From contig CAILAZ010000227.1 in the NCBI GenBank assembly GCA_903832295.1, positions 12,998-76,997 of the forward strand: 64,000 nucleotides of DNA. Reading direction: 5' to 3'. The notes beneath the pieces were generated by a model. That model saw only the letters and a list, made by a program, of their open reading frames with translations. It did no database searches and had not been told where the DNA came from. Of this stretch, positions 1 through 35,600 are shown in pieces (the stretch's first letter is position 1; each line of letters opens with the position of its first letter). This DNA comes from an uncultured Acidobacteriota bacterium. Lineage in GTDB: Bacteria; Acidobacteriota; Terriglobia; Terriglobales; Acidobacteriaceae. Position numbers and translations under genes: made by a program.

Positions 1-456
1 AATGCAGATCAGCCGCGTCTTCGGCGTAATCGCCCGCAGCAGCCCCTCCGCTGGAAACTCCAACCCCGCGCCAGACTGCACCGTGCGCACCTCTGCTCCC
101 GTTGCCAGCGCATAAATCTCGTACATGCTGAACGTGGGCACCGCAAGCAGCGCCTCGTCTCCCGGCTCAAGGTAGGTCTCCGCCAGCAGGTGGATCGCCT
201 CGTCCACGCCGTTCGTCAGCAGCACCGCTTCCGCCGGCATTCCAAAGTGCCTGGCCGCCGCCGCCTCGCCCCCTTCGCGTTCCGGATACCGGTTCAAGGT
301 CTCCGAGGTCATCGCGCGCAGCGTCTCCAGCACCCGTGGCGAGCAGCCATCCACGTTTTCGTTGAAGTCCAGCCGCAACCCGTCTCGACCACCCAACGGT
401 GGGTGGTACTCCTTCATCGTCTCTACCGCGCGGCGCGCCCGCAACCCCGCGCTCAT
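1..456 (-). CDS. hisC: histidinol-phosphate aminotransferase, N-terminal 152 codons (3' end runs off window)
   Basis: Absent from the ORF track because there is no stop in the window. Hand translation of the minus strand from ATG at 456 gives [46 protein letters not shown]...LLTNGVDEAIHLLAETYLEPGDEALLAVPTFSMYEIY, a typical HisC N-terminus. ATGA start/stop overlap with hisD (453-456). Confidence 0.85.
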   Translation of the reverse strand, partial: MSAGLRARRAVETMKEYHPPLGGRDGLRLDFNENVDGCSPRVLETLRAMTSETLNRYPEREGGEAAAARHFGMPAEAVLLTNGVDEAIHLLAETYLEPGDEALLAVPTFSMYEIYALATGAEVRTVQSGAGLEFPAEGLLRAITPKTRLICI

Positions 457-1697
457 TTCTTCAGCCTCACCCGCACGCTCTCCGCGTGACCCTTCAACCC
501 CTCGGCCTCGGCCAGCAGCGTCACCGTCGGAGCAATCCTCTCCAGCCCCTTGCGGCTCGCCTCCTGCAGCGTAATGATCCGCACAAAGTCCATCACGTTC
601 AGTCCGCCCCGGTAGCGCGCCACGTTGCCCGTTGGAAGCGTGTGGTTCGGCCCGCTCGCATAATCGCCCACCGACTGCGGCGTGTAGTCGCCCAGGAACA
701 TCGAGCCCGCGCACTTCAGGTCATACACATCTTCGGATGGCACCGTCACGTGCTCGCCTCCGATTTCATTCGTCCAGTCCAGCGCCTGCTTGCGGCTCTT
801 CGCCACCAGCGCTACACCGCGCGCCGTCAGTGACTGTTTTGCAATCTCATTGTTCTCCGCCATCTCCATCGCGCACTTGATCACAGCTTTTGCCAGCCGC
901 GTGCTCGCCGTCACAAATATCGCCAGCGCCTCCGGATCGTGCTCCGCCTGCGCCACCAGGTCGCTCGCGATGAACTCCGCGTTTCCTTCCGTCGCGCAAT
1001 AGACAATCTCCGTTGGCCCCGCCAGGAAGTCGATACCGCAATCGAACGCCACCAGCTTCTTTGCCAGCGTCACATACGTATTGCCCGGCCCCACGATCTT
1101 GTTCACCCTCGGGATGCTCGGTGTCCCATACGCAAACGCCGCAATTGCCTGCGCCCCGCCCATGCGGTAAAACTCCGTCACCCCAATAATCTCTGCCGCC
1201 GCCAGGGTCTCTGCTGCCGGACGCGGCGACGCCACCGCAATCCGTTTCACTCCCGCCACCTGTGCCGGAATCACCGTCATCAGCACCGTGGAAGGCAGTG
1301 GATACCGCCCTCCCGGCGCATAGCATCCCACCGACTCCAGCGGACGGATCGCCTGTCCCACACGCATCCCCGGATAAATCGTCCGCACCCACGGGCGCGG
1401 CAGTTGCCACTCCGCAAAGTTCCGGATATTCTTCGCCGCCGTCTCAATCGCCTTCACAAACTCGGAGCTCACTTGCCCCAGCGCGGCCTTCATCTCCTCG
1501 GCCGTCACCCGCAACTCCGCGCTCGCGCCCAGCCCGTCGAACTTGCGTGCGTACTCCAGCAGCTTTGCGTCGCCGCCCTTGCGCACATCACCCACAATTT
1601 CCGCGACTGTCTTCTCCACCGCCGGGTTAAACGACTCATAGCGGTGAGCCAGAGCAACCACGGTCTCTGCCGCTTCTTCGCCCGCAAGCAACTTCAT
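453..1697 (-). CDS. hisD: histidinol dehydrogenase
   Basis: ORF 453..1814 trimmed to the ATG at 1697 ([21 protein letters not shown]...), which overlaps the hisG stop (TAATG). Full-length HisD-like sequence ([32 protein letters not shown]). Confidence 0.93.
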
Positions 1698-2569
1698 TAC
1701 ATCACCACCTTGTTCAGCGGATACTCTACAATTCCCGTCCCACCCGCCGCCTTCAACCGCGGAATCACGTCCCGCACCACCGTCTCTTCCAGGATCGTGT
1801 TCACCGCCACCCACTCCGAGTTGCTCAGCGCCGAAATCGTCGGCGAATTCAGCGCCGGCAGCACTGCCAGTACCGCCTGCAGGTTTTTCTGCTGCACGTT
1901 CAGCATCAGCCCCACCCGTCCCTGCGCCGCAATCGCTCCCTGCAGCATCAGTGAGATGTTATCGATCTTCTGCCGCTTCCACGCGTCCGCGTACGCCTTC
2001 TTGTTGGCGATCACCTGCGTGTTTGATTCCAGCACCGTATCCACAATCCGCAGCCGGTTCGCCCGCAGCGAACTTCCCGTCTCCGTCACTTCCACAATCG
2101 CGTCCGCCAGCATCGGAGGCTTCACCTCCGTCGCCCCCCAGCTGAAGTCCACCTGCACCGGAACGTTCTTCCCCGCAAAGTAGTTCTTTGTCACCTCAAC
2201 CAGCTCGGTTGCGATAATCTTCCCCGCCAGGTCCTCCGCCCGTTGCACCGTCGAGTCCTCCGGCACCGCCAGCACCCACCGCACCTTGCCCCGGCTCTGC
2301 TTGGCGTAGATCAGGTCGCAGATCGTCTCCACCTTGCGCCCGCTCTCCACCACCCAGTCCGTCCCCGTCAGCCCCGCGTCCAGCACGCCCTGCTCCACGT
2401 ACCGGGCCATCTCCTGCGCCCGTATCAGCATGCACTCCAGTTCAGGGTCGTCCGTCGAAGGAAAGTAGGAGCGCCCATTCGCATAAATCTTGAAGCCCGC
2501 CGCCGCAAACAGCGCAATCGTCGCGTCCTGCAGTGAGCCCTTTGGAATTCCCAGCCGAATCTTACCCAT
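1697..2569 (-). CDS. hisG: ATP phosphoribosyltransferase (long form)
   Basis: 290-aa [31 protein letters not shown]..., with the C-terminal regulatory domain. 8-nt overlap with the hisI stop. Confidence 0.93.
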
Positions 2570-2906
2570 TCGAAACCTCCGCCGACTTGAACGTCATTTC
2601 CTTCGTAAAGCAGGAGCGCGTGCCCTCGTGGCACACCAACCCGTCGCCTTCCACCTGCACCTTGCACAGCACCGTATCGTTATCGCAATCGGTCGCCGCG
2701 TAGGTCAACCGCAGGCGGTTGCCGCTGGTCTCGCCCTTCGTCCACAGCTTGTTCCGCGTGCGGCTGTAAAAGGTCACATACCCGGTCTCCAGCGTCTTCT
2801 CCAGCGCCTCCCGGTTCATGAACCCCAACATCAGGACCTCGCCATTCCCGTCATCCTGCACAATTGCCGGAGCGAGTCCTCCCATTTTTTCAAAGTCGAT
2901 CTGCAT
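2562..2906 (-). CDS. hisI: phosphoribosyl-AMP cyclohydrolase
   Basis: ORF 2562..2960. Start moved to ATG 2906 ([10 protein letters not shown]...), which has an AAGAGG SD about 8 nt upstream; the ATG at 2960 abuts the attenuator U-run with no room for an RBS. PRA-CH-like core [10 protein letters not shown]...DCDNDT...CHEG. Confidence 0.85.
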
Positions 2907-2960
2907 CGTCGCTACCTCTTCTTTTGCTGGCCTTGCTGGAGCACTCATCCTCAGCGGCAT

Positions 2961-2998
2961 AAAACAAAAAACCCGCTGGGTGTGAATTCGCCAGCGGG
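2961..2998 (-). terminator. intrinsic terminator of the his attenuator
   Basis: Minus-strand RNA: CCCGCUGG (2998->2991), 11-nt loop, CCAGCGGG (2979->2972), then UUUUUUGUUUU (2971->2961). It lies between the leader ORF and hisI. Confidence 0.75.
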
Positions 2999-3020
2999 TC
3001 AGAGCTTGGATAATTACCTT

Positions 3021-3098
3021 TTACAAGGTTCCACGCGCCTCCGCCGACAAAATCGCCGTATGGTGATGATGCGTGCGGTGATGGAGAGTGGAAACCAT
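3021..3098 (-). CDS. histidine-rich leader peptide (hisL-like), MVSTLHHRTHHHHTAILSAEARGTL
   Basis: 25 codons + TAA, read by hand; too short for the ORF track. His codons CAT CAC .. .. CAT CAT CAC CAT give 6 of 8 consecutive codons. An alternative in-frame ATG at 3104 adds MA. No clear SD. Confidence 0.7.
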   Translation of the reverse strand: MVSTLHHRTHHHHTAILSAEARGTL

Positions 3099-3111
3099 TG
3101 CCATTATGGTA

Positions 3112-3140
3112 TCTATACAGAGCGCACCCGGTCAACGCAA
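3112..3140 (-). promoter_or_regulatory. candidate sigma70-type promoter of the his leader
   Basis: Minus strand: TTGCGT (3140->3135), 17-nt spacer, TATAGA (3117->3112). The -10 ends 7 nt before the ATG at 3104, so the transcript could be leaderless or have a very short leader. Hexamer matches are weak. Confidence 0.3.
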
Positions 3141-3264
3141 AAAACGTCTCCCCACCGCGTCCCTGCCCTTGTCTTTCCCCGCCTCCAGTTACAATTCGTA
3201 ACGAACCGCCGCCCCGCCTGCGCCGTATCTTCATCTCAGTGCGTCCAATGAGCTAGGAGTCAGC

Positions 3265-3975
3265 ATGAGCGAACAGACCGGCGCCGTCGCCATCGAGGCC
3301 CGAGCCGCCAGCCGTTTCTACACCATGGGAGAAGCTACCGTCCGCGCCGTCGAAGACGTCAGCTTCCATATCAACCGCGGCGAGTTCGCCGCCCTCCTCG
3401 GCCCCTCCGGCTCTGGCAAGTCCACCCTGCTCAACCTTCTCGCCGGACTCGACCGCCTCACCGCCGGCAGCATCGTCGTCGCCGGCCGCGATCTCAGCAC
3501 CATGGACTCCGAGGCCCTGGCGCGCTACCGCCGCCTCACCGTCGGCATGATCTTCCAGTCCTTCAACCTCGTCCCCACCATGACCCTCGCTGACAATATC
3601 GAGCTCCCCCTGCGCTTTGCGGAAACCGCCCGCGCCGGCCGTCGTGACCGTGTCATGGAACTGCTTACCAACGTCGGCCTCTCCCACCGCGCCGGGCACA
3701 AGCCCACCGAGCTCAGCGGAGGCGAGCAGCAGCGCGCCGCCATCGCCCGAGCCCTCGCCAACAACCCCTCTGTCCTCCTCGCCGACGAACCCACCGGGAA
3801 CCTCGACAGCCGCAACGGTCAGGAAGTCATGACTCTTCTCCGCGACCTCAACCAGAAAATGGGAGTCACCGTTCTCATGGTCACCCACGACCCCTCGCTC
3901 GCCGAGCGCTACGCCCGCAAGTCGCTCCACATGGCCGATGGCCGCCTCGTCTCCACCGTGGAGGCCGCCCAGTGA
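3265..3975 (+). CDS. ABC transporter ATP-binding protein (MacB/LolD/FtsE-like)
   Basis: Walker A GPSGSGKST, signature LSGGEQQR, Walker B LLADEPTGNLD. GTGA overlap with the downstream permease. Confidence 0.9.
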   Translation: MSEQTGAVAIEARAASRFYTMGEATVRAVEDVSFHINRGEFAALLGPSGSGKSTLLNLLAGLDRLTAGSIVVAGRDLSTMDSEALARYRRLTVGMIFQSFNLVPTMTLADNIELPLRFAETARAGRRDRVMELLTNVGLSHRAGHKPTELSGGEQQRAAIARALANNPSVLLADEPTGNLDSRNGQEVMTLLRDLNQKMGVTVLMVTHDPSLAERYARKSLHMADGRLVSTVEAAQ

Positions 3976-8364: not shown

Positions 8365-8387
8365 AGCCCGCTCCGTGCGGGCTTTTT
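8365..8387 (+). terminator. intrinsic terminator after tdk
   Basis: AGCCCGC (8365-8371), loop TCCGT, GCGGGCT (8377-8383), then TTTTT. Confidence 0.7.
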
Positions 8388-22022: not shown

Positions 22023-22319
22023 CTACTCTTCCAGGATGGCGTCCACATCTCCCAGCAGCTTCTCCATCCGCGTGCGAACCTCGGCCCGCTCCTGCTGTAG
22101 CGCCTGCAATTCCTTGCGCACCGCCTCGGTCTCCCCGGCCTGCGCTTCCATCATCTCGCGCATCGTCACCACCTCCAGCTCCGCTGCCGCCTTCTGCGAG
22201 CGTGCCGCCTTCAGCAGTTCGATGGTGCGGTATATCTTCTCTTCCAGCGCCTGGAAATCGCTGCTGGAGCTCTCAAATGCAAGCTGCCCTTCTGCCATCG
22301 AAGCCATCAGTCCCCTCAT
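22023..22319 (-). CDS. coiled-coil cell-division protein (ZapB-like)
   Basis: ORF 22023..22598 trimmed. Candidate ATGs at 22319, 22307 and 22298 (MRGLMASMAEGQ...). The E/K/Q/A-rich heptad sequence and position directly upstream of zapA support the call. Start uncertain. Confidence 0.55.
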   Translation of the reverse strand: MRGLMASMAEGQLAFESSSSDFQALEEKIYRTIELLKAARSQKAAAELEVVTMREMMEAQAGETEAVRKELQALQQERAEVRTRMEKLLGDVDAILEE

Positions 22320-22344
22320 CTTCTCGAACTTTTGGAAAGCTCGA

Positions 22345-22523
22345 ACTTCCGGAAGTATAACGCAGAAAAGCGCGTTGCAATCAGCGCTTCCCTGCCGCCA
22401 TCCCTGTTCCCCGCTCCCCGCGCAGGGTTGCCGCACCTTCACCAAAGCCGCTGCCCGCGCTAAAATTAGCAATTCCGGAAGAACGCGCAAGAAGTTTTGT
22501 GCAACCCCGCCGCCTCCGGAAGT
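22345..22523. promoter_or_regulatory. three TCCGGAAG-core motifs in the zapB|M48 divergent spacer
   Basis: A perfect 12-bp palindrome ACTTCCGGAAGT 22345-22356 lies next to a minus-strand TATACT -10-like hexamer. TTCCGGAA is at 22473-22480 and TCCGGAAGT at 22515-22523. There is also a direct repeat CTCGAACTT at 22323-22331 and 22340-22348. Confidence 0.4.
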
Positions 22524-22567
22524 TCTAATATGGGTAAGGCTAGCCACAGCCTGAGAAGGCACCGACC

Positions 22568-23614
22568 ATGAGAACAAAGATCGCGCTGCTGCTGACATTG
22601 ACTCTCGCGCTCGTCCCCTACGGGCTAGCCGGCGACAAGACCGATAAACCAGAGAAGACGGACGAGAAGAGCGAGTTGGACTTTCCTCATGACGGGAAGA
22701 CCGACGACGTGAACGCGATTGGGAATCGAAACGTGGGATGCAGCAAGGGACTGGGCAACTGGTACTCGCTGGAGAGCCAGGTCTCCATGGGCAAGAGCTT
22801 CGCCATGCAGGTGGAGCAGAGCGCCAAGGTCATCAACGATCCGGTGGTCAGTGAATACGTCAATCGCATCGCGCAGAACATCGTGCGCAACTCTGACGCC
22901 AAGGTTCCCTTCACCGTCAAGGTGCTCGACGACGATTCAGTAAATGCCTTTGCCTTGCCCGGTGGATACTTCTACGTGCAGAGCGGATTGATTCTTGCCG
23001 CTGACAATGAAGCCGAACTTGCCGGAGTGATGGCGCATGAGATCGCGCATGTAGCTGCATGCCATGCGGCCCGCCAGGTGACTCGCGGCAACCTCGCGAA
23101 TCTCGCATCGATTCCGCTCATCTTCCTCGGTGGCGGCCTGGGTTACGGATTGTATGAAGCTGCCGGCATCGGCGTGCCTCTGACGTTCATGAAGTTCCAG
23201 CGCAACTTTGAAGCTCAGGCAGACTACCTCGGCGTGCAGTATCTCTACGCCAGCGGCTACGACCCGCAGGCCTTCCCGCAGTTCTTCGAAAAAATCCAGG
23301 CGCTCGAAAAAAAGAAGCCCGGCTTTGTAGCCAAGGCCTTTGAGACACATCCGCCTACGCCCGCGCGCATGGAACACACGCAGCATGAGATTGCCACCAT
23401 CCTTCCCGCAAAGCCGCAGTACGTGGAAGACACCTCTGAGTTCCAGGACGTGAAGGCCCGGCTCGCAGCGCTGGAGAATCGCCGCAAGGTTGATCAGGGC
23501 AAAGACAAGGGACCGAGCCTTCGCCGCGCAAACACCAGCCAGGGCGATAGTACAAATCCGGATGACCAGACCAAGAGCACGGATGATCGACCCACGTTAA
23601 AGCGCAGGGATTAA
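22568..23614 (+). CDS. secreted M48-family zinc metalloprotease (BepA-like, no TPR seen)
   Basis: Signal peptide, HEIAHV zinc motif, and C-terminal THPPTPARM. Confidence 0.8.
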   Translation: MRTKIALLLTLTLALVPYGLAGDKTDKPEKTDEKSELDFPHDGKTDDVNAIGNRNVGCSKGLGNWYSLESQVSMGKSFAMQVEQSAKVINDPVVSEYVNRIAQNIVRNSDAKVPFTVKVLDDDSVNAFALPGGYFYVQSGLILAADNEAELAGVMAHEIAHVAACHAARQVTRGNLANLASIPLIFLGGGLGYGLYEAAGIGVPLTFMKFQRNFEAQADYLGVQYLYASGYDPQAFPQFFEKIQALEKKKPGFVAKAFETHPPTPARMEHTQHEIATILPAKPQYVEDTSEFQDVKARLAALENRRKVDQGKDKGPSLRRANTSQGDSTNPDDQTKSTDDRPTLKRRD

Positions 23615-35576: not shown

Positions 35577-35600
35577 AGAGTTCTGCGAAGGAAATAAATC

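Follow-up and report, generated by a model that had tools for sequence, protein, structure and literature searches.

The DNA considered here (hereafter the window) is a stretch of 64,000 nucleotides (nt) from an uncultured bacterium of the Acidobacteriota (contig CAILAZ010000227.1), whose minus strand carries the histidine biosynthesis genes hisI-hisG-hisD-hisC. Directly upstream of hisI lies a short open reading frame (ORF) with a run of His codons, followed by a hairpin and a U-tract, an arrangement that the original prediction, made from the sequence alone, took for a ribosome-mediated attenuator of the operon. The comparison of this region with its counterparts in related genomes argues for the same reading, which is backed by the conservation of the His-run ORF, covariation in the terminator, an in-register antiterminator, and a constraint acting at the RNA level. 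The elements of the leader region and the genes that follow it are collected in Table 1.

Relatives were gathered by a scan for HisI over one genome per species (GTDB r232), which yielded 80 hisI loci (numbered L001 onwards) with 68-89% identity in HisI. The taxonomic coverage is that of the 80 closest species-level genomes; in a separate homologous-protein search with HisI, the relatives listed were all at least 75% identical. The loci come from metagenome-assembled genomes (MAGs) labelled Acidobacteriota, Terriglobia, Terriglobales, Acidobacteriaceae, Korobacteraceae or Candidatus Angelobacter, except for L009 (DATLJC010000070.1, labelled Candidatus Saccharimonadales) and L076 (DATMPO010000136.1, labelled Verrucomicrobiia). 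Both of these encode a HisI of the Terriglobales type (89% and 71% identity, respectively) preceded by the same leader and putative attenuator, and their contigs are probably mis-binned. Upstream sequence is present at 79 of the 80 loci. Alignment A1 comprises 79 leaders (the window's own and those of 78 loci) over 177 columns, which begin immediately ahead of the start codon and end with the U-tract.

Table 1. Elements of the leader region and genes of the his operon in the window.
Feature	Position	Strand	Sequence or description	Basis
Leader ORF	3021..3098	minus	25 codons + stop, MVSTLHHRTHHHHTAILSAEARGTL*	homologous His-run ORFs in relatives
Regulatory codon run	3060..3083	minus	His-His-Arg-Thr-His-His-His-His, proposed ribosome stall site	
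-35 box	3130..3135	minus	TTGACC	promoter scan and family conservation
-10 box	3106..3111	minus	TACCAT, 18-nt spacer from the -35 box	promoter scan and family geometry
Predicted transcription start	3098..3099	minus	on the A of the leader AUG or 1 nt ahead of it	7-nt gap from -10 box to ATG
Region 1	3071..3078	minus	CCGCACGC, pairs with region 2 without a ribosome (anti-antiterminator)	minimum free energy fold of the untranslated transcript
Region 2	3041..3054	minus	GAUUUUGUCGGCGG, antiterminator 5′ strand, leader codons 15-20	pair counts, wobble conservation, stalled-ribosome folds
Region 3	2984..2997	minus	CCGCUGGCGAAUUC, terminator 5′ arm and loop start, pairs with region 2 or 4	
Terminator hairpin	2970..3000	minus	10 base pairs (bp), GACCCGCUGG / CCAGCGGGUU, 11-nt loop, about -18 kcal/mol	folding and covariation
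U-tract	2961..2971	minus	UUUUUUGUUUU (U6GU4)	kept as UUUUUGUUU in A1
hisI	2562..2906	minus	phosphoribosyl-AMP cyclohydrolase, first regulated gene (predicted)	PF01502, E = 1.5e-31
hisG	1697..2569	minus	ATP phosphoribosyltransferase, long form	PF01634 and PF08029
hisD	453..1814	minus	histidinol dehydrogenase	PF00815
Class I/II aminotransferase gene, 5′ part	1..456	minus	about 140 residues, compatible with hisC and truncated at the edge of the window	PF00155, E = 4e-11

The His-codon leader and its promoter

The leader ORF had been described as running from 3098 to 3021 with His in six of eight consecutive codons, and both its coordinates and its sequence are confirmed, with the ATG at 3098, the TAA at 3023-3021 and the six His codons within 3083-3060. 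This is the sole stretch with at least six His codons in eight in the six frames of the window, and none of 200 Markov-simulated windows contains such a run. The only other stretch with five His codons in eight, near 22149 on the plus strand, was considered as a leader peptide and rejected: its frame has no ORF of at least 40 residues, and it lies opposite a 191-residue ORF of the minus strand (22023-22598).

A short ORF with a His run is found upstream of hisI in all 79 relatives with upstream sequence, as in the window. The best eight-codon stretch of the relatives holds 4-7 His codons, and 5-7 in every case but the frameshifted L004. Across the family the leader measures 19-26 codons, and its stop codon lies 67-304 nt before hisI in the relatives (median about 95) and 114 nt in the window. 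The consensus peptide can be written as M-x-S-L-x-H-(H)-R-H-H-H-H-H-(H)-x-A-x-V-S-A-E/G-..., with N-terminal residues and a number of His that vary freely among the relatives. At 77 of 79 loci the distance between promoter and ORF start is fixed and the ORF stops before the terminator; the two exceptions, L004 (2815-2944) and L010 (2799-2943), carry single-base frameshifts in the leader next to intact RNA elements, and these frameshifts most likely stem from indels introduced in MAG assembly and not from a real loss. Six of these leader peptides, that of the window included, have no record in a collection of 15 billion proteins, gene callers never having recorded them.

The promoter scan agrees with the geometry seen in the window, that is, TTGACC (3135-3130), 18 nt, TACCAT (3111-3106), 7 nt and the ATG at 3098, and this geometry recurs in the family. 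In 74 of the 80 loci with a leader ORF, the leader start is preceded at a constant distance by TTGAC plus A, C, T or G, the spacing between the -35 box and the start codon being 35-42 nt (mode 38). Among the 74 modelled loci, 72 show a TAnnnT hexamer (TAGCAT, TAGGAT, TATCGT and others) after a spacer of 17 or 18 nt, and in 70 the gap from the -10 box to the start codon is 6-10 nt (mode 8). The start codon would thus coincide with the predicted transcription start or follow it by 0-4 nt, which leaves no room for a Shine-Dalgarno (SD) sequence. SD-like 4-mers occur before the leader in 19 of the 74 loci, versus 58 of 74 before hisI; the -10 hexamer is TAGGAT in 16 loci, and TAGGAT itself contains AGGA. 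From the spacing of the -35 and -10 boxes, we consider it probable that the leader transcript is leaderless or near-leaderless.

A leaderless transcript had already been hinted at, on the basis of the lack of an SD sequence and of a TATAGA hexamer upstream of the first ATG, the in-frame ATG GCA at 3104. The idea itself is kept, while its coordinates are replaced by TACCAT as the -10 box and by the ATG at 3098 as the start. The spacing between TATAGA (3117-3112) and the conserved -35 box is only 12 nt. The ATG at 3104 is indeed present, but it is unconserved and a single nucleotide separates it from the -10 box. An in-frame ATG-NNN-ATG beginning two codons before the conserved start is seen in the window (3096-3104), L001 and L002, where it overlaps or abuts the -10 box, and it is not conserved elsewhere.

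Terminator and antiterminator helices

Beyond the leader stop, the original prediction had placed an 8-bp stem, CCCGCUGG (2998-2991) with CCAGCGGG (2979-2972), around an 11-nt loop, 22 nt past the stop codon and followed by the U-tract. This hairpin is found as described, and its G+C stem extends to 10 bp. In A1 (columns 133-142 with 158-167), 99% of the cells are paired, compared with 26-54% in shifted registers, and five of the ten pairs covary, with U-A/C-G exchanges in 20 sequences, A-U/G-C in 21 and C-G/U-A in three (51 double-change cells). Aligning the hisI upstream regions of relatives, a check proposed at the outset, thus finds both the His run and the hairpin kept, with compensatory changes in the stems. 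The energy of the terminator, about -18 kcal/mol in the window, has a median of -20.9 kcal/mol over the 79 sequences, and the 161-nt leader of the window folds at -54.3 kcal/mol (z = -3.2 versus shuffles).

A custom scan for hairpins followed by a U-tract gave only 14 candidates on both strands of the 64-kb window, the clearest of them near 8383, 13059 and 37498 on the plus strand and near 35598, 23313 and 2971 on the minus strand. The last of these is the hairpin discussed here, which escaped the built-in terminator scan, as that scan accepts loops of no more than 8 nt. The upstream neighbour, a gene for an ABC-transporter ATPase (3265-3975, plus strand), is divergent, and the hairpin therefore terminates no gene.

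Between the leader stop and the terminator there is also a box resembling AGCAAUCAU (GCAAUCAU-like; GUAAUUAUCC in the window, 3008-3017 on the minus strand; A1 columns about 112-122). It is conserved across clades, is unpaired and plays no part in the three helices described in this section, except that some clades have an extended antiterminator in which the AUCCA at its 3′ end is paired to UGGAU in the leader codons.

The 5′ arm of the terminator has a second partner inside the leader ORF. Complementarity with G-U pairs had been proposed between UGUCGGCGG (3049-3041) and CCGCUGGCG, and it holds, although its extent needs correction from 9 bp to 14 nt, reaching into the terminator loop. In the family, the antiterminator consists of 12 bp, UUGUGU-CGGCGG (columns 64-76) with CCGCUGGCGCAA (columns 136-147; 2997-2984 in the window). 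It is 87.5% paired, versus 29-57% in shifted registers, with 30 double-change cells, and none of 500 shuffles, a control that ignores phylogeny, reaches the observed score. Antiterminator and terminator have columns 136-142 in common, and the two helices are mutually exclusive. Column 140 (U or C) is a case in point, as it pairs with both of its partners, with column 160 as UA in 58 sequences and CG in 20, and with column 72 as GU in 50, GC in 20 and AU in nine, none of them broken. A matched change is also seen between the window and its close relative L001, in which GAUUGUG becomes GAUUUUG in the leader and GCGCAAUC becomes GCGAAUUC in the loop.

The codons of region 2 carry a further sign of this pairing. 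Their four wobble positions are 89-97% conserved, compared with a mean of 59% for the wobble positions of hisI in the same genomes, where only 5.5% of the wobble columns reach 88% conservation; selection in region 2 therefore acts on the RNA and not on the peptide. Independently of any alignment, the duplex of region 2 with the terminator arm and loop has a median energy of -21.7 kcal/mol. The value for the window is -20.6 kcal/mol, versus -14.9 +/- 2.6 for mononucleotide shuffles (2.5% of which are as good), and at 53 of 79 loci the duplex energy falls within the best 5% of shuffles.

The third helix is a small hairpin that follows the His run (columns 54-58 with 65-69). Its pairing stands at 89%, and it shares nucleotides with the 5′ part of region 2. 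In the window, the partner of region 2 in this position is CCGCACGC (3078-3071), within the His-codon area, and the complementarity between regions 1 and 2 is supplied by the conserved Arg codon (CGC) within the His run.

The effect of the ribosome on these helices was followed in transcripts cut just before region 4 and then folded, with the ribosome represented by a 30-nt footprint. In the cut transcript of the window, the 1:2 helix forms without a ribosome and region 3 stays open, a termination-prone state, and a footprint centred on a mid-run His codon leads to 11 bp of the 2:3 helix. Across the alignment, at least 6 bp of 2:3 form in 69 of 79 sequences when the ribosome is stalled mid-run, versus 35 of 79 when the transcript is free.

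The proposed attenuation and the rival explanations

We read the locus, at a probability of about 85% and from its sequence features, as a histidine-responsive, ribosome-mediated leader-peptide transcription attenuator of hisI-hisG-hisD-hisC, which would tie the expression of the operon to the supply of charged tRNA-His. The sigma-70-type promoter would start transcription at AUG 3098 or 1 nt before it, so that the leader would be translated from a leaderless or near-leaderless 5′ end by a ribosome close behind the polymerase. When His-tRNA is scarce, the ribosome would stall within HHRTHHHH (3083-3060) and leave region 2 (3054-3041) free to pair with region 3 (2997-2984) as it emerges; no terminator would form, and the polymerase would read through into hisI. 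When His-tRNA is plentiful, the ribosome would pass region 2, reach the stop codon (3023-3021) and cover the linker between regions 2 and 3, and region 3 would then pair with region 4 (2979-2970), transcription ending in the U-tract (2971-2961). If no ribosome is present, region 1, in the His-codon area, would hold region 2, and termination would likewise be favoured.

Several points weigh against this scheme. A fold of the leader, suggested with the original prediction as a check for exclusive helices, does find 2:3 and 3:4 mutually exclusive, and a competitor of the terminator exists; at equilibrium, however, the terminator wins in the full leader under every ribosome mask tested. The switch must therefore be kinetic, and a kinetic decision is normal for attenuators. 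The untranslated transcript already adopts the 2:3 helix at 35 of 79 loci. With the footprint on the stop codon, 2:3 still closes around the masked stretch in some sequences, that of the window included, and region 2 ends 2-3 nt outside the stretch that a ribosome on the stop codon would nominally cover; such a closure over a ribosome-occupied loop, with about 11 free nt, seems to us sterically implausible, and the block in high histidine is in this sense a steric argument and not one of direct masking. The 1:2 pairing is weak and the least secure of the three helices. In the window taken alone, the antiterminator is modest, 11 of 200 dinucleotide shuffles being as good, and its case rests on the family comparison, in which the pair-count shuffles ignore phylogeny and clade-level changes are common to many sequences. 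Finally, we infer where transcription starts, that the ribosome is coupled to the polymerase, that a ribosome at the stop codon acts as a steric block, and that the switch responds to histidine.

The hairpin might be a regulated terminator of another kind, whose sensor is a protein, an uncharged tRNA (in the manner of a T-box) or a small ligand, with the His codons incidental. His operons of other phyla are indeed under T-boxes or the HisR repressor (PMC9413887), and the conserved, unpaired GCAAUCAU-like box (3017-3008 in the window) has no assigned role. The T-box model, however, has no match in positions 2500-3600 of the window, where an Rfam scan returned only sub-threshold, terminator-driven noise (anti-hemB, 17.9 bits; Trp_leader, 15.5 bits), and a scan of 20 representative related loci at gathering thresholds matched no family, T-box and His_leader included. 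Incidental His codons are also hard to reconcile with a run that always lies in an ORF of fixed start distance that stops before the terminator, the two frameshifted loci apart, and a ligand pocket would call for a longer leader with less variation outside the three helices; we regard a different sensor as very unlikely. It is also unlikely, if somewhat less so, that the leader ORF controls hisI mainly at a post-transcriptional level, be it by translational coupling, by reinitiation or by Rho-dependent polarity, with the hairpin as only a leaky constitutive terminator or an RNA stabiliser. Intrinsic termination and ribosome-polymerase coupling are not known to behave in Acidobacteria as they do in E. 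coli, which counts in favour of a post-transcriptional role. Some attenuators work on translation and not on transcription (PMC9413887), and leader ORFs near genes have been proposed to boost reinitiation (PMC4833913). Yet the distance from the leader stop to hisI is too long for reinitiation, hisI has an SD-like sequence of its own, its ribosome-binding site is not in the hairpin, and under this reading the conserved, covarying alternative pairing between the leader and the 5′ arm of the terminator would serve no purpose.

The short ORF could, on the other hand, encode a functional His-rich micropeptide, for instance a metal-binding one, co-transcribed with the his genes next to an unrelated hairpin. 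The peptide is conserved, including its C-terminal ...VSAE(A)... tail, and functions in trans exist for some leader peptides (peTrpL). This tail, however, coincides with region 2, where the wobble positions vary no more than the rest of the codon, unlike those of hisI, whereas the N-terminal residues and the number of His are free to vary, and the element is always linked to histidine biosynthesis genes and to the terminator, all of which makes a micropeptide extremely improbable. As for the idea that a His-rich ORF and a hairpin came together by chance in G+C-rich intergenic DNA, it can call only on the modest single-sequence statistics of the antiterminator, and it is refuted by conservation: such a His run is missing from all 200 simulated windows and every element is kept at the loci with upstream sequence, so that its probability is practically nil.

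The his operon and the relation to known attenuators

Within the operon, the true start of hisD is probably near 1697, abutting hisG, and in the gene calls of L081 hisD comes directly after hisG. For hisI, an in-frame ATG at 2960, directly after the U-tract, opens an ORF of 132 residues, and database HisI entries of 130-197 residues occur among close relatives (P0001, P0003, P0008, P0014, P0019), which suggests that in gene calling the hisI start is often set too far upstream, within the attenuator region. The start at 2906 is favoured by the conserved N-terminus MQIDFEKM and by the SD-like GAAGAGG. Several loci have 170-300 nt inserted between the attenuator and hisI, among them L059 (about 2790-3000) and L067 (about 2885-3000), which carry a common repeated element, GTAAGCGGTTTGGAGCGAAGCGAC, directly upstream of hisI; this element may be similar to repetitive extragenic palindromic (REP) sequences or miniature inverted-repeat transposable elements (MITE). 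Long spacers are also found in L018, L060, L074 and L080.

The attenuator proposed here recalls the hisL leader of enterobacteria, in which the position of the ribosome chooses between exclusive terminator and antiterminator helices (PMC9413887). Both have a short His-codon ORF upstream of the his operon, a terminator before the first gene, and mutually exclusive helices. The likeness does not extend to detectable sequence or structure similarity: RF00514 (His_leader) has no match in positions 2500-3600 of the window even at E <= 10, and the cmscan check suggested with the original prediction is thus negative, placing an element that would work like hisL outside that sequence family. Moreover, unlike in hisL, a conserved Arg codon interrupts the His run, the operon opens with hisI and not hisG, and there is no SD sequence, the promoter geometry implying a leaderless start. 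The hisL leader of E. coli has 16 codons, versus the 19-26 of the present family. Since the phylum differs from that of hisL, the origin is probably independent.

Candidate his attenuators have also been proposed in Firmicutes, namely in the Bacillus cereus group, Peptostreptococcaceae and Erysipelotrichales (Ashniev et al. 2022, PMC9413887; Naville & Gautheret 2010, PMC2965389). Like the present one, they are lineage-specific His leaders (with 3-5 or more His codons) combined with a terminator and an antiterminator, they come from comparative genomics, lack a match to RF00514, and are predicted only. They belong to another phylum and have other sequences, they were not reported as leaderless, and the base is larger here, with 79 species-level genomes and explicit covariation counts. 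Leaderless leader peptides, in turn, are known from Deinococcus deserti (14 predicted attenuators; PMC4007540), from trpL/rnTrpL of Sinorhizobium meliloti (PMC6614838) and from the poly-Cys short ORFs of mycobacteria (bioRxiv 10.1101/834739). As predicted for the family described here, their ORF lies at the 5′ end or about 1 nt from it, without an SD sequence, and before genes for amino-acid biosynthesis or tRNA synthetases; the transcription start sites were mapped in those systems, whereas here the start is predicted from the -35/-10 spacing, and both the amino acid and the taxa differ.

In agreement with the original prediction, full-text literature searches found no His leader or attenuator described in Acidobacteria or Terriglobia, with one multi-phylum survey (Lopatovskaya et al. 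2010) outside their coverage. What appears new is the phylum and an unregistered sequence family for a well-known mechanism, neither the mechanism nor its leaderless twist being new in kind. We give even odds to the broader proposal that these leaders form an independently evolved, leaderless His-sensing family, widespread in Terriglobales, and that no amino-acid leader-peptide attenuator had been defined in Acidobacteriota before.

Nothing changes in how attenuation itself is understood, and a specialist would not be surprised by this further, apparently independent invention of the His-leader solution. For the Acidobacteriota, it provides a concrete and testable regulatory element and an entry point to regulation in the phylum. 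The 79 sequences and their three helices make up a seed alignment ready for a new RNA family, which would let pipelines annotate the leader ORF and stop over-extending hisI. The conserved geometry from promoter to AUG points indirectly to leaderless translation in Terriglobia and to a coupling of transcription and translation there. If the broader proposal of an independent leaderless family is true, these slow-growing soil bacteria would rely on leaderless initiation of the 70S type and on tight ribosome-polymerase coupling for amino-acid sensing, and an abundant terminated leader RNA of about 135 nt, or its peptide, could act in trans, like rnTrpL/peTrpL of Sinorhizobium.

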